Positions 39,062-49,385 of a stretch of DNA of 64,000 bases are shown here, piece by piece; positions within the stretch are counted from its first letter, which is position 1, and every line of letters begins with the position of its first letter. The DNA is taken from positions 4,282 to 68,281 of the forward strand of contig JAUSAB010000023.1 of assembly GCA_030653035.1 (NCBI GenBank), in the 5' to 3' direction. The notes below the pieces were generated by a model. It did no database searches and had not been told where the DNA came from. It worked only from the letters and a program-made list of their open reading frames with translations. The translations under genes and the position numbers were made by a program. The stretch comes from Desulfocapsaceae bacterium. GTDB taxonomy: Bacteria > Desulfobacterota > Desulfobulbia > Desulfobulbales > Desulfocapsaceae.

Positions 39062-42000
39062 TCAAGAAAATGTAATTGCCATCGGCAGGGTTTTTTCTTC
39101 AGTGCCACGGACTCGCTGTCCCCAGAGTGGGCACTGCTTGCCGATACACTCCTTGTTTTTCAGGTACTGATCACAGTGAAGAGTCGCCTCTGCTTGCAGG
39201 GATACCGAAAGCAGTTCGGTTGAGAGTCGGGCTGTTTCGCTTAAGGCGATATAGGTCTCGCGCTGGCAGCAGCGGCCTCCCTTGCGGCTGGCCAGGGCCG
39301 TCAGGATCCGGCCGGAAAACTCCTGGGCCAGTTGACGCGGACCGGGGGTCAGCGGCGTGGCCGCAAAAATTGTAGCGACGCCAATGCCAATGCCGATGGC
39401 CGCCCCGCATGCGCCCCAGAATCCACATACCCCGCCAGGCACATCGGCGCCGCGATTGATAGCGGTCAAGATCTCTTGAGGACCGATCTTGCCGCCGCCA
39501 TTGCGATAACAGGCGAGCAGGATGCCGGGAATCATGGCATGATGTTCCGGGCCGTGCATGGGGATGGAGGGGTGGCTGCGGATGATGGTGAGCAGTCTGA
39601 TCAGATCCTGTTCATTGGTGGTGGTACAGATGGTCTTGATTACCTCCAGGCCGTTTTCCTGATGGCACTGGTTGCAGACAAAATGGCTCTTTTCGCAGCA
39701 GCCATCGGCAAGGTATGTTTGACCGCAATAGTGGCAGGACATTTTCAGGGGTTCTGTGAAGTAGAGAAGCTCCTTACCGCAGCACATGCAGCCTGATTCT
39801 TGGCGGGCGTCGTGGTTGTCCACAGCCTCCGGTGGCGCGCAGCAGGAGGCTGCGGCGTCTGAGGCCATGGTGGTGCTTGACGGAGCGCAGCAGCAATTGG
39901 TCATGACCAGATTGGTGACCGCTCCTTGTTCATCAAGGATAAACACCGAATCATCCAGAAGTGCAATGTCGGCATGAGGAATTGTGGTACGTCTTCCTTT
40001 GACCAGCAAAACTCCGCTTTCCGTGTAGACAGCCCTATACGGCCCTCGGTAGACGACGGCCATGGAAGGCCTAGTGTCGTGGGCGCCAAGGACGGCGCAG
40101 GAACGACCGACGGTGATGGTGTCCACTTTTTCTTCCTCTTGCGGTCGCTGTGCCTGGTAAGTGAGTGAAAAAAAATCCATTCCTTCCACCTGACGATAGG
40201 GGAAGCGCTTTATCAGATGGATGCCTGTAAATCCCGCTGCCTCCAGCATGGCCACCAGCTCTTCCTGCTGCATGGCCCCTCCCAGACATTCTCCGCGGTA
40301 GAGCACATTGTTCTTGATGCTGGAAGGAATGGGGGTATCGGTGATGATATCTGAGATCACCATCCTGCCGCCAGGTTTCAGAATCCGGTAGATTTCCCGG
40401 TAGGTCTGGCGTTTATTAGGACTCAGATTGATGACACAGTTGGAGATAACAATATCGGCGCAATTATCCTCAAGCGGGATCTGCTCCAGAAATCCTCGGC
40501 GAAATTCCACATTGTCATAGCCAAGGCGGGCCACGACCTCTTGTTTTGAACTAGTGGCAAGATTGAGCATCTCCATCGTCATGTCAATGCCAAAGACCCG
40601 TCCCTGCGCGCCGACGGCGGCCGCGGCCATGAAGCATTCCACACCTGAACCGGAACCCAGATCGACCAAGGTCTCGCCTGGCTGCGGGTCGGCATCCGTC
40701 ACCGGACTGCCGCAGCCGTACGAGCGTTTTCGCGAGTCCTCAGGGATAAAATCAGCCAGGTCTTGGGCCGGGGCCAGCGGGTTGACAATATCCATGTTGG
40801 CGGAGAGGGCCGCCTGCCCATAAAATTCACGGACCTGGCTGTGTCCGTGGTCTGAGGCTAGAGAGATCACGCAGTTGCAGTGGGTCAGGGTCACGTTGCT
40901 GCCTGTTGCCTCCGGGTCAGGGCAGTCATGACGGATATCGCCCATACGCAGGGCTATGGCAGCACGGCTTGATATCGGCGAGAAGGCAGCTTGTCTGCTG
41001 ATCAGGCGCAGGACAATCTTGTCATACAATTCCACATAGGGGTCATGGCCAACCCATTCCCCGCCGGTCAGAAAGCTGTGATCACTGTCGCCGCCGCCAA
41101 TGATGAACTTCAGGGGATTCTTTTGATAGCGCGGGGAATCAATCAGGGAGGCATGGCGCAGGGTTTCGAGTACCGGGCTGGTCTGCCAGACCGTGGCCAG
41201 TCCCTGGGCCAGATCCCCGCAGGCGGCCTCGGCCAGTCCGATCAGGGCTGGGGATGGATAGACAATACAATCCGGCCCAATGGCCACGGATTCCCAGCCA
41301 CCATTGGACAGATCATGGCGGGTGCCGGGGGTGGAAAAGACCTGAGCGCGGATGGTTTCGATATTGTCAATGGGGAGTCCGCACTGGTCGGCCCGATCCC
41401 ACGCCGCTACCAGATGGGGGAAGATCTCCGCCGGTGGGACAAATTGTTCCCGGCTGCCCTTGCCGCGGATAAAATGGTAAAGCAGATGGATGCTGGCGGC
41501 CCCGATGGTGGCCGCCAGGGTGACCAGTTCGGTCAGATCGGCCACATTGGCCCGACTGACGGCAATGGAGAGGGTAAAGGGGATTTCCGCCTGACGCAGG
41601 GCGGCAAGGTTGTTCAGGAGTTTCTGATACGCTCCCGTGCCACGCAGGCTGTCATGGGCCTGTTGCAGCCCGTCGAGGCTGACCTGCAGGTGCAGGCGGT
41701 CAAGGCCTTGCAACGTCGGTATATTTTTTTTCAGGAGCGTGCCGTTGGTCAGGATAACGGCATGGGCCTGGGGGTTTTCGGACAAAAAGAGGGCCAGCCA
41801 CGGAAAAAAATCAGGGTAGAGAAAAGGCTCGCCGCCGGTGAAATAAAAGAGGCTGCAGCCAAGCGCTAGAGCCTGCCTGGCGGCCATGTCCAGCTGCGTC
41901 TGGGGCAGAGTGCGACTTTTGGCCGGAGAGGCTGCAAACAGGCAGTGGCTGCAACTGAGGTTGCAACGGTCGGTCAGATGAAACCAGCATTCTTTGAGGC

Positions 42001-42313
42001 GGTTTAGGGTCAGCTCCTGGCCGCGTCCCGCATAGCTTTTCTGACTGGTGATATGCAGGGCCTGCTGGAGACGATCGAGGTCGAGTGCGAGCCGGTGTTC
42101 ATCGGTAATGCTTGCTGCAATCATGCCGGGTGAGGTCTTGCGCAGAGTTCTGATTGCCTCGGCGATGCTTCCGGTACTGGTCAGGGCCTGTAGTAATTGA
42201 TCACCATAATCGGTTGGAACCAGCCAGTCCGGTGTTTCCGGCTGGATATAAATGGCGCGGCCTTCATCTTCCAGCCTCTGCCATTGCAAGGGGATGTGTA
42301 TTGCTGTGGTCAT
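39062..42313 (-). CDS. Multidomain fusion: radical SAM domain + ArsM-like class I SAM methyltransferase + Cys-rich zinc-ribbon / GCAxxG-type C-terminal domain
   Basis: CNLSCSHCLF (CxxxCxxC) with FTGGEPFL. The methyltransferase block SYGCGSPV...LVDLGSGSGVECF...GIDMT.EML...NVEFRRGFLEQIPLED...SNCVINLSPNK...LKPGGRMVISD matches ArsM motifs, including the two As(III)-ligand Cys positions. The C-terminus has CMCCGK...CHYCG...CNQCH, HGPEHH and CGFWGACGAA. Confidence 0.8.
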   Translation of the reverse strand: MTTAIHIPLQWQRLEDEGRAIYIQPETPDWLVPTDYGDQLLQALTSTGSIAEAIRTLRKTSPGMIAASITDEHRLALDLDRLQQALHITSQKSYAGRGQELTLNRLKECWFHLTDRCNLSCSHCLFAASPAKSRTLPQTQLDMAARQALALGCSLFYFTGGEPFLYPDFFPWLALFLSENPQAHAVILTNGTLLKKNIPTLQGLDRLHLQVSLDGLQQAHDSLRGTGAYQKLLNNLAALRQAEIPFTLSIAVSRANVADLTELVTLAATIGAASIHLLYHFIRGKGSREQFVPPAEIFPHLVAAWDRADQCGLPIDNIETIRAQVFSTPGTRHDLSNGGWESVAIGPDCIVYPSPALIGLAEAACGDLAQGLATVWQTSPVLETLRHASLIDSPRYQKNPLKFIIGGGDSDHSFLTGGEWVGHDPYVELYDKIVLRLISRQAAFSPISSRAAIALRMGDIRHDCPDPEATGSNVTLTHCNCVISLASDHGHSQVREFYGQAALSANMDIVNPLAPAQDLADFIPEDSRKRSYGCGSPVTDADPQPGETLVDLGSGSGVECFMAAAAVGAQGRVFGIDMTMEMLNLATSSKQEVVARLGYDNVEFRRGFLEQIPLEDNCADIVISNCVINLSPNKRQTYREIYRILKPGGRMVISDIITDTPIPSSIKNNVLYRGECLGGAMQQEELVAMLEAAGFTGIHLIKRFPYRQVEGMDFFSLTYQAQRPQEEEKVDTITVGRSCAVLGAHDTRPSMAVVYRGPYRAVYTESGVLLVKGRRTTIPHADIALLDDSVFILDEQGAVTNLVMTNCCCAPSSTTMASDAAASCCAPPEAVDNHDARQESGCMCCGKELLYFTEPLKMSCHYCGQTYLADGCCEKSHFVCNQCHQENGLEVIKTICTTTNEQDLIRLLTIIRSHPSIPMHGPEHHAMIPGILLACYRNGGGKIGPQEILTAINRGADVPGGVCGFWGACGAAIGIGIGVATIFAATPLTPGPRQLAQEFSGRILTALASRKGGRCCQRETYIALSETARLSTELLSVSLQAEATLHCDQYLKNKECIGKQCPLWGQRVRGTEEKTLPMAITFS

Positions 42314-42355: not shown

Positions 42356-43753
42356 CTAAAAATAAATTCCTTTTACCGCCGCCTCTTCTCTGCTGGCCCC
42401 GGAGTTTTCCCGGATGGATTCAGCAACCTGGCTGGCGCTCTTGATCATATCGTTGAGTCCGATGCCCTCCCAGCCAAAACCGTGAATGAACAGTCCTGGA
42501 TTCTCTCGCATTAACTGGTCACGCCAGTTCAGAAGGGCGGGGTAACCTGCCTCTAGTTGGGGAATTCCCCCTTTGGGCCGCAGGACCTTGGCGTAGAGCG
42601 GTTCTCCCTGTAGAGGTAACAGTTGGCGCAGATCAACCAGGGTCTGACGGATCAGGGTGGTATCGTCAAGGTCGAGCCGTTCCGGGTGTCGGCGTCCACC
42701 GATCAGGGCTTCCAGGAGGATATGGCCTTGGGGTGCTCTTTCGACAAACATGTTGGAGGAAAAGAGTGCCCCCAGGCAGAAACGGTTTTCCTGCTCCGGG
42801 GCCAGATAGCCAAATCCCGGCGGCAGGGTGGAGCCTGGGCCAAAGCCCAGGGCAATAGTCACAATCCTGGCCTCGGGAACAGCGTTCTGGGGCATGGAAG
42901 TGGCAAAGGTATGGAGCAGGTCTAAGGACGGGTTGATCGGCAGGGCCAGGGCCAGATTCCTGGCCTGGTGGCTCCCTTGGTCGGATTCCACCTCCCAGCC
43001 TGTCTGGGTCTTGCGGATGGCCTTGACGCCGCAGTTGAACAGGATGTCACGGCCCGGCTGCAGCGACTCAGCCAGTTTCTCCGGGAGACGACCCATGCCG
43101 CCGGGGAAACTGGTCATGGCCGGCAGTCCCTTCTTTTTTTCGCCCGTGGTTGTCTTTGCCTGTCTGGTCTGGTTCATCTTGGCAAGCAGGCCGCGAATCA
43201 GCGAACCATGGGTCTTTTCCAGACGGCGGACCCCGGGCATGACGCCATCGATAACCAGCCGGTTCAGGTCGCCCGCGTAGGTGCCGGTGAAGACCGCGTC
43301 AACATAGGGCAGCAGGGCCTGGCCAAAACGGTGTTCCACCCACTCAGCCACGGTTGGTTCGCCCTCCAGTGGTTTTTTGAAGAGCTCGCCCAGGACCCGA
43401 ATCTTGGCCAGCGGTGAGATCAGGGGGGCCATGATGATCTTCAATGGGCTCTGCGGAATACAACGTAAGCGCCCATCCATGCAGACATAGCGGACAAATC
43501 GGCTTAAGGGGGCCTTCACGCATTCCTGGTCCAGGCCGCTTTCCTGTAATAAGAGCCGGCTTTCCGGGCAATTATCAAGAAAGCCATGGGGGCCGTTTTC
43601 AGCGAGAAAGTCATTCTCGGCATGGCTCCAGATGACCCCGCCCGCCCTGTCCGATTTCTCGAGGATAAGGGACTGGTGTCCAGGGCAGAGCTTCCGCAGT
43701 TTATGGGCCACGGTCAGGCCGGAGAGCCCGCCGCCAATAATTAGGGTATCCAT
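42356..43753 (-). CDS. FAD-dependent protoporphyrinogen/coproporphyrinogen oxidase-like (HemY family) oxidoreductase
   Basis: From ATG 43753: MDTLIIGGGLSGLTVAHKL dinucleotide-binding motif and a ~465-aa PPOX-like layout. The longer track ORF (to 43840) would translate the palindromic intergenic repeats. Confidence 0.7.
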   Translation of the reverse strand: MDTLIIGGGLSGLTVAHKLRKLCPGHQSLILEKSDRAGGVIWSHAENDFLAENGPHGFLDNCPESRLLLQESGLDQECVKAPLSRFVRYVCMDGRLRCIPQSPLKIIMAPLISPLAKIRVLGELFKKPLEGEPTVAEWVEHRFGQALLPYVDAVFTGTYAGDLNRLVIDGVMPGVRRLEKTHGSLIRGLLAKMNQTRQAKTTTGEKKKGLPAMTSFPGGMGRLPEKLAESLQPGRDILFNCGVKAIRKTQTGWEVESDQGSHQARNLALALPINPSLDLLHTFATSMPQNAVPEARIVTIALGFGPGSTLPPGFGYLAPEQENRFCLGALFSSNMFVERAPQGHILLEALIGGRRHPERLDLDDTTLIRQTLVDLRQLLPLQGEPLYAKVLRPKGGIPQLEAGYPALLNWRDQLMRENPGLFIHGFGWEGIGLNDMIKSASQVAESIRENSGASREEAAVKGIYF

Positions 43754-43763
43754 GGTTTTCTGT

Positions 43764-43839
43764 AGGTCGGGATTTATCCCAACACTTCCTTGATTGATGG
43801 TTGAAGTTATCGGGTTGCAGGTCGGGATTTCTCCCGACA
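43764..43839. promoter_or_regulatory. Two copies of a 21-bp palindrome-containing motif (putative operator pair)
   Basis: AGGTCGGGATTTATCCCAACA (43764-43784) and AGGTCGGGATTTCTCCCGACA (43819-43839), 55 bp apart. The core is TCGGGA-N4-TCCCGA. The second copy abuts the -35 box of the htpG promoter. Confidence 0.45.
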
Positions 43840-43841
43840 AC

Positions 43842-47174: not shown

Positions 47175-49385
47175 CTACAAAATATTGCAGGTTGCCAGAT
47201 TGCCGCTGCCGCCAGCGGCAATCTTCTGATAGAGATCCCACAGGTGTTCATCCACCCGTTTCTGACGGGCGTTGGCGTCTGGTTTCATGAACCGGCGGCT
47301 GGCACGCGGTCCCGCATTATATGCCGCATAGGTGGCACGGGCGGCGTGCGCAGGGTTGCCATTCTCTTTGGCTACTTGTGTGCCGTATTCTTTGAAGTAG
47401 CGCATCAGGATCTGACTGCCCGCCTGGATATTATAAGCCGCATCCACCTGTAATCGTTCAATATTGTAAAATCCCCGCCACACATGTTGATTGATCTGCA
47501 TGATGCCGATTCCGCCTGAGGGAGATCGCAGCGTAACGATTTTGTCGTCTTTGCGTTCATATTGCTGCCAGCAGCTTTCAATCATGGCGGTGGCCGGAAC
47601 CAGATGCTGGTAGATTGTTGCGTAGCGAGGCTCAAGGCGTTCTTGCTTTACCTGTTCACGGGCAAAGGATTTCAGCAGTTGAGAAATGATCTTTTCATAT
47701 TCAGCGAGTTCTTCCGTCGTTGGTACCCAGTGATCCAGTCGTTTTTTCAGCTCGGTAGTGGTTAGGTGCGGCGGCCCTTCGGCATGGGCGACCCCCACTA
47801 AAAAATTCAAAAGGTACTGGCCCGTTGTCGAACCCTGTGCCGGAGCTGGTGGGTTTGGTATCGAGTCTTGTGTTGGTGGAACCGGTATGTCTTGCTCTAT
47901 TATCGGCTCTGGGGCCGTTTGTGGTGTTGCATCTGGTGTTGCATTCGGCACCGGAGCAGGTGAAGGTACTGGTACTGATTCCGGCGGGAAATTTGCTGGT
48001 GGGTTTGGTGTCAAGTCTTGTGTTGGTGGAACCGGTATGTCTTGTTCTATGATTGACTTTGGGGCTGTTTGTGGTGTTGCATCTGGTGTTGCATTCGGCA
48101 CCGGAGCAGGTGTCGGCACTGGTGCTGATTCCTGTGGGAAATCTGCTGGTGACTCATCTGTCGAGTCTGGTGGAAAGTCTTCGAACTTTGCTTCCGGCTC
48201 CGGTTGAAACTGGAACAGTGCGCGCAAGGCTGGATCGATCTTCCAGTCAAAGTGCAGAGGGTCTTCTCCGGAACCTGGCTGCAGCATCCTTGCCAATCGC
48301 CGCAGACCATCACTGGTAAGATGGATGCCAAGGCCAGGGGCGGCGGCATCCAGTGTCAGCAGAGCGTCTCCGGCATTGACAAAGGTCATGTAGCGCAGCA
48401 GTTGTTTTTGCATCAGGCCATTTTTGCCGCTGTTCTGTTCGACGATGGGGCGTAATTGCTCCCAGACATCGATAAATAACAGCCGCAATGGATCTTCATT
48501 CTCCATGGGCGCCTGACCGGTCAGGATCATCAGTAGTTGATATCGGCTGCTGATGAGCAGGTCAAAGAGCTGTTTTTGCTGCTGGGCATCAACCGGTGCA
48601 TTTGCTGTGTCGGCGCTGAGGTTCTTGATGATAAAGACCAGAAAGGCATCGAGCGGTTCAAAAATATGCTGGAGTTTTTCCATCTCTTCAAAACCGAGGG
48701 GTGCCTGCGGTGGTAGAGGCGTCACGGCTTGGGGCTGGGCGTCAGCCACAGTCATGAGCAAGGGGACAATAACACTGTCAGCCTTGGCGCGCAGGGTTCC
48801 GACGGTGAGCGAACTCAGGGCGGCCTCAAGTGGCGCTGTATTTGTCGGGGAGGAGCAGGCACGGAGCACGGCGGTAATATCTTTTTGGGGCATGGTCAGA
48901 TCAAAGGCATATTGCTCCAGACGTGGATGGAGGAAACGTTTGCAGAGTTCCCAGGCAAATCCCGTAACCACTGGCTTGCCGCCTTTTTCATTGTAGATGG
49001 CGGAGTCAATAATGCGATAACGCAGCTGCCATTGGGGATCCACATAAAAGTTTAATCGCATGAGAATGGTGCCGCCCCATTTGACTACCGATGGCAGGAC
49101 ACCGAGTGAGTCGAACCCCATTCCGGCGGTGGCGTTGCAGCTGAAATAGGGCTGGCCGTCGCGGATCGATAACTGGGGCTTGGAGATGTGAAGATAGTTG
49201 TAGGAACCCTCCTGAAAGAGTACAGTGGGGCGGTCCGGCTGCGGGGTGAGGGACTCCACCAAGGCATTTTGTAAGATCTGGGTCCGCAGAAAAAGTGGCA
49301 GTTCAATGGTCTTGGCGCTCAGAGGGGTCGCTGCTGTTATCAGCAGAAGACAGAAGAGAAGGAATGATCGAAAAAGTTGTCGCAT
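47175..49385 (-). CDS. Secreted lytic transglycosylase (C-terminal SLT domain) with a large N-terminal domain and a Pro-rich duplicated linker
   Basis: Signal peptide, then C-terminal MIESCWQQ (catalytic Glu context), GGIGIMQIN and AYNAGP motifs. Confidence 0.8.
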   Translation of the reverse strand: MRQLFRSFLLFCLLLITAATPLSAKTIELPLFLRTQILQNALVESLTPQPDRPTVLFQEGSYNYLHISKPQLSIRDGQPYFSCNATAGMGFDSLGVLPSVVKWGGTILMRLNFYVDPQWQLRYRIIDSAIYNEKGGKPVVTGFAWELCKRFLHPRLEQYAFDLTMPQKDITAVLRACSSPTNTAPLEAALSSLTVGTLRAKADSVIVPLLMTVADAQPQAVTPLPPQAPLGFEEMEKLQHIFEPLDAFLVFIIKNLSADTANAPVDAQQQKQLFDLLISSRYQLLMILTGQAPMENEDPLRLLFIDVWEQLRPIVEQNSGKNGLMQKQLLRYMTFVNAGDALLTLDAAAPGLGIHLTSDGLRRLARMLQPGSGEDPLHFDWKIDPALRALFQFQPEPEAKFEDFPPDSTDESPADFPQESAPVPTPAPVPNATPDATPQTAPKSIIEQDIPVPPTQDLTPNPPANFPPESVPVPSPAPVPNATPDATPQTAPEPIIEQDIPVPPTQDSIPNPPAPAQGSTTGQYLLNFLVGVAHAEGPPHLTTTELKKRLDHWVPTTEELAEYEKIISQLLKSFAREQVKQERLEPRYATIYQHLVPATAMIESCWQQYERKDDKIVTLRSPSGGIGIMQINQHVWRGFYNIERLQVDAAYNIQAGSQILMRYFKEYGTQVAKENGNPAHAARATYAAYNAGPRASRRFMKPDANARQKRVDEHLWDLYQKIAAGGSGNLATCNIL
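47851..48150. repeat. Exact-length 150-bp tandem duplication inside the transglycosylase gene
   Basis: 47851-48000 and 48001-48150 align base for base with few mismatches. They encode two 50-aa Pro/Thr-rich copies (...PVPNATPDATPQTAP..IIEQDIPVPPTQD...). Confidence 0.9.

Follow-up and report, generated by a model that had tools for sequence, protein, structure and literature searches.

A conserved radical SAM–ArsM–DUF5714 fusion protein of Desulfobulbales, a candidate for organoarsenical formation

Which reaction could be carried out by a single polypeptide that joins an enzyme of the radical S-adenosylmethionine (SAM) kind to a methyltransferase of the arsenite-methylating ArsM type? The question is raised by a gene at 39062..42313 (-) of a 64,000-nucleotide (nt) stretch of DNA (the window) from a Desulfocapsaceae bacterium (GenBank assembly GCA_030653035.1, contig JAUSAB010000023.1). 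The gene has an ATG start and encodes 1083 amino acids (aa) in one frame, as seen in the open reading frame (ORF) list and in its full-length homologues. A preliminary description had proposed that this fusion might serve organoarsenical biosynthesis. We show here that its three-part architecture is conserved, that it carries an ArsM-type active site and intact radical SAM motifs, and that orthologous genes are linked to transferase genes with an arsenosugar label. We give an even chance to the reading that it is a single-polypeptide organoarsenical-forming enzyme, which would combine methylation and then radical C–As chemistry on arsenic or a similar soft metalloid. This reading is favoured because both the ArsM and the radical SAM sites are invariant, because the two enzymes have been fused in both orders, and because orthologues are linked to arsenosugar-labelled transferases and a transporter.

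A conserved fusion and its relatives

The ORF is uninterrupted over its 1083 codons, and all the motifs quoted in the preliminary description were found in the translation: RCNLSCSHC (C117/C121/C124), GGEPF (160-164), SYGCGSP (C534), ISNCVINL (C626), GECLGGA (C676), NCCCAP...SCCAPP (807-830), CMCCG...CHYCG, HGPEHH and CGFWGACGAA. There is no in-frame TGA, the CC motif being made of cysteines, and the GC content of the gene is continuous with that of its neighbours. Domain scans bear out the four parts then proposed (radical SAM enzyme, methyltransferase, Cys-rich linker and Cys-rich C-terminal domain). Pfam matches were obtained for Radical_SAM at residues 113-263, for Methyltransf_31 at 545-694, with several class-I methyltransferase models matching at ~545-694, and for DUF5714 at 892-1064 (E 1e-57).

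Among 5.8 billion proteins searched, more than 120, each 1020-1110 aa long and 54-97% identical, have the identical Pfam architecture. They come mainly from Desulfobulbales; Desulfocapsaceae, Desulfurivibrionaceae and Desulfobulbaceae are represented, as is Thiovibrio sp. JS02 by its complete genome. In public annotation these homologues appear only as 'DUF5714 domain-containing protein' or 'methyltransferase domain-containing protein'. A second scan, with one genome per GTDB species, gave at least 550 genomes with DUF5714 relatives. All of the 80 best loci, which were examined, hold the complete three-part protein, in one reading frame wherever the contig allows. Among them are the cultured Desulfurivibrio dismutans, Desulfurivibrio sp. 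D14AmB and Hydrosulfovibrio ferrireducens, as well as metagenome-assembled genomes (MAGs) assigned to D. alkaliphilus and Electrothrix. Because the same architecture recurs uninterrupted in these independent proteins, including that of Thiovibrio JS02, and in the 80 species genomes, the gene is a single genuine one, and an ORF artefactually joined from two or three genes by sequencing or assembly error is for practical purposes ruled out. The rare broken copies (L005, L014, L033 and L065) are frameshifts that split the homologous gene, which shows that errors in this family split the gene and do not join it. On one long-read metagenome contig (L005:6307-9428) the fusion lies in at least six frameshifted pieces, and because of this a database entry that looked like a two-domain methyltransferase–DUF5714 protein of 487 aa (P0163) was rejected as spurious, being a frameshifted full-length fusion. 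Three MAGs each have two fusion-bearing contigs (L022/L023, L026/L033 and L084/L085), which could be paralogues or strain mixtures.

The window protein is a derived offshoot within a large family in which radical SAM enzymes are fused to ArsM, with members from Nitrospirota, Elusimicrobia and other phyla. When 1.84 billion cluster representatives were searched exhaustively with HMMER, two-domain radical SAM–ArsM fusions of ~720-850 aa (P0270-P0293) were among the relatives. This two-domain family numbers more than 700 clusters at 90% identity, and its sources include Nitrospirota, Nitrospinota, Elusimicrobia and Omnitrophica. The ArsM signatures YGCG and SNCVIN occur throughout this wider family, and the two-domain protein P0284 scores above the NCBI cut-off for arsenite methyltransferases (273 vs 263 bits). 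A further group has the reverse order, ArsM before radical SAM/SPASM (P0294-P0296, P0351 and P0381), which implies independent fusion events between the two enzyme types; fusion in both orders points to repeated selection for their coupling. A third type of relative joins DUF5714 to a different radical SAM protein. A literature search found no papers on radical SAM–ArsM fusions.

Domain anatomy

The radical SAM core (residues ~105-330; 41324..42001, (-)) carries the CX3CX2C motif (C117, C121, C124) and GGEP at 160-163. It scores 71.7 bits with PF04055 against a cut-off of 29.5, and its barrel is modelled by AlphaFold2 at a predicted local distance difference test (pLDDT) of 85-95. Both motifs are invariant in 40 aligned homologues, and they are unchanged across 40-97% identity and across phyla.

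This core is preceded by a winged-helix domain (residues ~10-85; 42059..42286, (-)) resembling PqqD and the recognition element (RRE) of ribosomally synthesized and post-translationally modified peptides (RiPPs). It has an invariant P28-D29-W30 and was modelled at pLDDT 84-90 as three strands followed by three helices, the order typical of RREs. Pfam gave no matches on the N-terminus, the radical SAM extension or the linker and zinc-ribbon segments of the window protein, but the region aligned to the RRE-like domain matches Pfam PqqD (PF05402) in the homologous fusions P0293 and P0288. With Foldseek the N-terminal half aligns to the RRE-containing maturase CteB (5wgg; TMt 0.74, 480 columns).

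The core is followed by a SPASM/twitch-derived extension (residues ~331-485; 40859..41323, (-)) for which ~250 aa had been estimated and which we now put at ~150-220 aa. It contains the invariant cysteines C365, C464, C479 and C481, which might bind a cluster; C464 and C481 ('HxNCV') are also kept in the two-domain relatives. The canonical seven-Cys SPASM motif was not seen in the window protein, where PF13186 is not matched and CX2CX5CX3C is not present; P0284, P0293 and P0294 have both SPASM matches and the CX2CX5CX3C motif. Bona fide PqqD and SPASM matches in more distant members of the family bear out this ancestry for both appendages of the radical SAM core, and the fold together with these homologues shows that the extension of the window protein descends from SPASM.

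The preliminary description had compared the radical SAM part with ArsS and ArsL. Its kinship lies instead with the RRE + SPASM/twitch lineage of peptide maturases, as seen in NCBIfam, in Foldseek and in the Pfam matches of the relatives. The best NCBIfam radical SAM matches are sactipeptide, ranthipeptide and mycofactocin maturases, and the structural neighbours of residues 1-480 are CteB (TMt 0.74), anSME (0.75), SkfB, SuiB, ChlB and PqqE. Neither ArsS (TIGR04167) nor ArsL is among the 25 best of the 111 NCBIfam matches to the fusion; the 25th scores 55 bits, so any match to them would lie far below the equivalog cut-offs.

The methyltransferase (residues ~490-805; 39899..40846, (-)) comprises an N-terminal helix, the SAM-binding fold with C534, C626 and C676, and the ArsM C-terminal domain. 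As proposed at the outset, it sides with ArsM and not with UbiE/COQ5: ArsM chains of the PDB are matched at E 4e-36 and the best generic methyltransferase at 5e-9, and the NCBIfam arsenite methyltransferase model gives 225 bits against 51 bits for Pfam Ubie_methyltran. That model (PRK11873, NF008823), which covers residues 510-732, is the best NCBIfam match of the whole fusion protein, at 224.7 bits (E 1.5e-66); none of the NCBIfam models attains its cut-off here. The ArsM C-terminal domain is included, since the methyl_ArsM model 'arsinothricin ArsM' (NF040538) aligns to within one position of its C-terminus (residues 614-809 on profile positions 167-355 of 356). Foldseek matches to ArsM/AS3MT structures have E-values from 4e-15 to about 1e-14 over ~290-320 columns. 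The cysteines that had been assigned to the As(III) site, C534 (YGCG), C626 (SNCVINL) and C676 (GECLGGA), are invariant in the alignment of 40 homologues. In ArsM proteins of known structure their counterparts bind As(III) (C72, C174 and C224 in CmArsM), and they also align with the cysteines of 5evj, which is matched at E 4e-36.

One feature separates the three-domain proteins from their relatives. The two-domain family keeps the 'ELCCP' Cys pair of canonical ArsM and ends in a 'CCxPGxSCC' tail, and all three-domain members read 'NP(V/L)' where the two-domain relatives keep 'ELCCP'. The pair is lost in every DUF5714-bearing member, and its loss coincides exactly with the gain of DUF5714, which suggests that the C-terminal module took over the redox role of the pair.

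This C-terminal module begins with a disordered Pro/Ser/Thr-rich arm (residues ~806-840; 39794..39898, (-); pLDDT <50) with vicinal Cys pairs, of which C808/C809 is invariant. One to three 'CC' pairs are present in every one of the 58 homologues surveyed for this arm, and the CC motif also precedes stand-alone DUF5714 proteins. It is followed by a predicted double zinc ribbon or RING-like module (residues ~841-890; 39644..39793, (-)), modelled as a pair of beta-hairpins, with the invariant ligands C842, C845, C860 and C863, then C873, H877, C880, C883 and H884. Weak zinc-ribbon and RING Pfam matches are seen across the family. The last domain is DUF5714 (Pfam PF18978; residues 892-1064; 39122..39640, (-)), which matches the full profile (1-173) at 194.7-200.4 bits against a cut-off of 26.2. 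Its invariants are HGPEHH, GGxCGxxGxCGAA, RCCQR and three C-terminal cysteines (C...C....C). When the C-terminal module was modelled alone, with 103 sequences, a pLDDT of 92.4 was reached; the DUF5714 model is all-alpha, and Foldseek gave no significant fold match to it in the PDB (best E 0.88). The domain had first been described as GCAxxG-type. The window sequence does not match C_GCAxxG_C_C (PF09719) even at E <= 10, and 40 of 103 DUF5714 family members match it weakly (best E 4.5e-4), so that the likeness is a remote resemblance and not membership. Our literature search gave no papers on DUF5714 and nothing functional on C_GCAxxG_C_C.

Proteins made up of the CC motif, the zinc ribbons and DUF5714 exist on their own, and in the MbdU profile (NF045648) the first 271 positions correspond to residues 806-1069 of the fusion, at 123.8 bits against a cut-off of 600. 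In P0327 and P0331 an MbdU-like DUF5714 is fused to TrsS, a radical SAM (seleno)protein akin to the tetraether lipid synthase Tes, and at L004:6719-8795 a stand-alone DUF5714 gene overlaps, and is translationally coupled to, a radical SAM gene which is TrsS (553 bits vs cut-off 490). Since it is fused to or overlaps TrsS too, DUF5714 is a module that repeatedly accompanies radical SAM enzymes, and it may be a general accessory of them. Two of six stand-alone DUF5714 genes adjoin radical SAM genes; the contexts are variable and the others uninformative. Past an IS110 element near the TrsS–DUF5714 pair, L004:11005-15436 holds an AMP-binding ligase, a 219-aa methyltransferase, DUF7479 and a 747-aa FAD/dicluster oxidoreductase. 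This stretch resembles the NCBIfam 'DVU_1553-1557' cassette, to which it may belong. P0224, a short gene call in which an in-frame selenocysteine was suspected, owes its length to a wrongly called start and has the normal CCC motif.

Gene neighbourhoods of the fusion

A first clustering of neighbouring genes gave no conserved partner at all. This result was overturned in more distant orthologues by tblastn, with the proteins of one cluster as probes against the other fusion loci. That cluster, in an Elusimicrobia genome with a two-domain fusion (L093), is co-directional and contains PiT/PHO4, the fusion, GT87, TIGR04283 (230 bits vs cut-off 182), TIGR04282 (208 bits vs cut-off 134), DUF547, DedA/VTT and more, further members being a PRK06370-type FAD disulfide oxidoreductase, AhpC, patatin and DsrE. 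NCBI names TIGR04282 and TIGR04283 'arsenosugar biosynthesis glycosyltransferases'. The transferases were found to flank the three-domain fusion in the deep-branching loci L079 and L082-L086, where the fusions are 40-43% identical to the window protein (a TIGR04282 homologue in 6 of 6). In L079, L082, L083 and L086, NCBIfam places TIGR04282/TIGR04283 genes above cut-off directly beside the fusion, and in two of these the two transferases are themselves fused into one ORF directly downstream of it (L079:6705-7988 and L083:6864-8243).

Other genes of this cluster recur as well. Among 46 mid-distance three-domain loci, VTT is present in 15, adjacent to the fusion in 11, and the reductase is adjacent in 5. 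In a metagenome scan of about 24 two-domain loci, homologues of TIGR04282 and/or TIGR04283 occur in ~9 and PHO4 in 9 (mostly adjacent), and several have VTT, the reductase or DUF547; the two-domain loci with TIGR04282/TIGR04283 adjacency are L093, L096, L102, L105, L111, L113 and L134, the curated cut-offs being passed in L093, L096, L102 and L105, for example. In the glycosyltransferase-linked loci the fusion is the sole ORF with a radical SAM signature, which is compatible with the fusion filling the ArsS slot of the cyanobacterial pathway. A related locus, L130, has ArsM, a VTT-reductase and weak glycosyltransferase homologues, with no radical SAM gene in the stretch viewed. There (L130:3466-5658) and at L097:10720-12783, beside ArsM-type genes, a PRK06370-type FAD disulfide oxidoreductase carries a fused DedA/VTT-like membrane domain. 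The VTT match of L082 and L086 falls inside an ORF for a 'diclust_near_Sec'-type oxidoreductase.

The flanks of the fusion in the window are as first described. A HemY-type (TIGR00562) oxidase gene with a TTG start (42356-43840, (-)) lies 42 nt upstream and scores 196.6 bits as protoporphyrinogen oxidase against a cut-off of 97.85; the downstream gene encodes DUF2058, assigned via its syntenic homologue in L003. Neither offers a pathway clue, in agreement with the preliminary description, and both were dismissed as such, their synteny with the fusion being kept in 7 close relatives only. The HemY-type oxidase sits in a presumed strict anaerobe. Elsewhere in the window, within a 736-aa ORF at 47175-49385 (-), a Pro-rich unit of ~60 residues is present in two near-identical copies (…DIPVPPTQD…PVPNATPDATPQTAP…); the syntenic ORF of L003 (809-2800, 663 aa) has a weak Pfam SLT (lytic transglycosylase) match only.

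Possible functions and comparison with known systems

If the fusion does form organoarsenicals, trivalent arsenic would be captured by the vicinal-cysteine arm and/or by the thiols of C534, C626 and C676, and the ArsM domain would methylate it with SAM. The methylated As(III) would then be passed to the adjoining radical SAM site, perhaps held by C464 and C481. There a second SAM would be reductively cleaved and a carbon radical would attack the arsenic to give a C–As bond. This step would be analogous to the adenosylation of dimethylated As(III) (DMAs(III)) by ArsS and evolutionarily independent of ArsS. The CC arm, the double zinc ribbon and DUF5714 would together provide a built-in metalloid-binding and redox partner in place of the lost N-terminal Cys pair of ArsM, and later steps would be left to TIGR04282/TIGR04283 transferases encoded elsewhere in this genome. 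We infer in this way the substrate, the order of the steps, the kind of radical reaction and the role of DUF5714.

The neighbourhood survey has left the organoarsenical proposal of the preliminary description in part strengthened, by the TIGR04282/TIGR04283 genes beside orthologous fusions, and in part weakened, by the absence of these partners from the window and from close relatives. Several observations weigh against it. No TIGR04282/TIGR04283, VTT, reductase, PHO4 or ars genes were found in the 64-kb window, the lack of nearby ars genes having been noted from the start, and none of them stands beside the fusion in any of the 28 closest relatives (at least 58% identity). In the clade of the window protein the gene lies among housekeeping neighbours, with nothing recurrent beyond local synteny, and looks vertically inherited and stand-alone. 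The functional link to arsenosugar genes would thus pass through orthology at 40-57% identity, the gene of this clade standing alone. The names of TIGR04282 and TIGR04283 presumably rest on guilt by association with ArsS, and arsenosugars are not known to have been reported from such anaerobes. The PRK11873 score of the methyltransferase falls under the NCBI cut-off (224.7 vs 263 bits), and the fourth ArsM cysteine, from the 'CC' pair between the 'EFYG' helix and YGCG, is a gap in the HMMER alignment to 5evj. The full-length model is of moderate pLDDT (69), confident for residues 10-330 and unreliable for inter-domain geometry. Finally, the radical SAM lineage with RRE and SPASM (CteB, anSME, SkfB) usually acts on peptides or proteins, not on small molecules.

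This last point leads to the main rival, in which the protein is a peptide or protein maturase and no metalloid is involved. The radical SAM enzyme would act on its own CC arm in cis or on an unlinked small precursor, and the methyltransferase would modify a thiol or carbon of that same Cys-containing peptide; we regard this proposal as unlikely. It would account for the RRE-like fold at the N-terminus and the PqqD matches of the relatives, for nearest structures that are Cys-directed enzymes (CteB, SkfB, anSME, SuiB and ChlB), for top NCBIfam radical SAM matches that are peptide maturases, and for a disordered CC arm conserved in every member. However, no conserved small ORF or precursor adjoins the gene in more than 80 loci, and the genes that do recur beside it encode transporters, glycosyltransferase-like proteins and reductases, not RiPP machinery. 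Also lost are the auxiliary-cluster cysteines with which SPASM domains bind the thiols of peptides. The tri-thiolate site of ArsM and its C-terminal domain, which have no obvious use in a peptide methylase, have been kept.

ArsM enzymes accept Se and Te, and the same two-step SAM chemistry might be directed at Se, Te, Sb, a persulfide or a thiol metabolite and be linked, not to arsenic, but to how Desulfobulbales handle sulfur and selenium. Among curated families, those nearest to the C-terminal module and to ArsM-like fusions are selenoproteins, namely MbdU, ArsM/AhpD, ArsM/DUF2284 and TrsS (PMC13188914). DUF5714 has a second partner in the Tes-like radical SAM protein TrsS, L082 and L086 are flanked by 'diclust_near_Sec'-type oxidoreductases, and the gene is core-like and free of ars context in the clade of the window protein. 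We nevertheless hold this alternative to be of low probability, as the protein goes with As(III) methyltransferases both in its tri-cysteine geometry and in similarity over the whole domain, the adjoining PiT/PHO4 transporter fits uptake of arsenate or phosphate, and the partner transferases bear the NCBI arsenosugar label. It seems most improbable that the protein is a detoxifying ArsM with accessory domains, in which the radical SAM part and DUF5714 are structural, regulatory or redox-supplying and no radical chemistry is done on the substrate. Canonical ArsM does need a disulfide reductant, and many ArsM-like proteins of anaerobes are fused to redox domains, AhpD and DUF2284 by their NCBIfam names. 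Against this stand the invariance of CX3CX2C and GGEP described above, the position of the gene outside ars operons, and the fusion of the domains in both orders.

A more elaborate form of the organoarsenical reading can be put forward, although we judge it rather doubtful. The family would be an ArsS-independent C–As assembly line in strict anaerobes, in which arsenic is carried on the CC arm, docked by a vestigial RRE and serviced by DUF5714. The arm might, with the same reserve, shuttle between the ArsM site and the maturase-derived radical SAM site. DUF5714 might be a new fold that serves radical SAM enzymes as a general metalloid and redox helper, because it also partners TrsS, a suggestion that we think no safer than the others. 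If true, a cryptic metabolism of the arsenosugar or arsenolipid type would be present in Desulfobulbales, Nitrospirota and Elusimicrobia.

Each catalytic domain of the fusion belongs to a known superfamily, and the pairing of radical SAM enzymes with ArsM is a known theme; unusual are the convergent radical SAM lineage, the missing catalytic Cys pair and a domain of unseen fold. The anaerobic makers of complex organoarsenicals and the arsenosugar steps after ArsS are questions for which this family gives a clonable candidate. Cultured anaerobes such as Desulfurivibrio, Thiovibrio and Hydrosulfovibrio carry it, and it extends widely through Nitrospirota and Elusimicrobia. Two SAM chemistries of arsenosugar and arsinothricin formation would be coupled here via a radical SAM enzyme derived from peptide maturases, which, once confirmed, would mean that enzymes had evolved convergently. 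A first functional context is also supplied for DUF5714, a domain with neither a structure nor a PDB fold match, and for the neighbourhood of TIGR04282/TIGR04283, DedA and PiT. If the substrate is not arsenic, the family would still be a new type of bifunctional SAM enzyme.

Among known systems, ArsM, which methylates thiol-bound As(III), is the closest to the methyltransferase part. With ArsM/AS3MT (CmArsM 4fr0/4fsd, CrArsM 5evj and human AS3MT 8xt7) the fusion has in common whole-domain homology over ~490-805, the SAM motifs and three cysteines. It differs in embedding this domain in 1083 aa, without the fourth cysteine or pair, below the family cut-off and outside an ars operon. ArsS adenosylates DMAs(III) via a 5'-deoxyadenosyl radical to give an arsenosugar precursor (PMC13598754), and in arsinothricin formation ArsL transfers SAM's aminocarboxypropyl group to As(III), after which ArsM methylates the product (PMC8552651; bioRxiv 10.1101/2024.02.01.577332). 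These pathways likewise pair a radical SAM enzyme with ArsM, whereas the fusion is one polypeptide with an extra DUF5714 module, and its orthologues lie beside TIGR04282/TIGR04283. Apart from belonging to one superfamily, its radical SAM part has no homology with ArsS (TIGR04167) or ArsL; it derives from RRE + SPASM maturases. The SPASM/twitch maturases CteB (5wgg), SkfB (6efn), anSMEcpe (4k36), SuiB and PqqE show the same order of RRE-like domain, radical SAM barrel and C-terminal extension; the fusion differs from them in having ArsM and neither the seven-Cys motif nor a precursor peptide gene.

PF09719 has a similar 'C-G-x-x-G-x-C-G-A-A' signature to DUF5714; Pfam keeps the two families separate, and neither has a known function. 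ArsD-type metallochaperones carry vicinal Cys pairs on a flexible segment suited to binding and handing over As(III), a chemical analogy to the CC arm without sequence homology. The nearest prior description is probably that of Haft and Tolstoy (mSystems, 2025), who reportedly treat MbdU, TrsS and ArsM-fusion selenoproteins. MbdU (NF045648) and the stand-alone DUF5714 proteins share with the fusion the module that begins with the CC motif, and this module is fused or adjacent to TrsS (NF045646). MbdU has a 'CU' motif with two selenocysteines (PMC13188914). The window protein has cysteine in place of selenocysteine, lacks the C-terminal half of MbdU, and joins this module to a radical SAM lineage other than that of TrsS/Tes.

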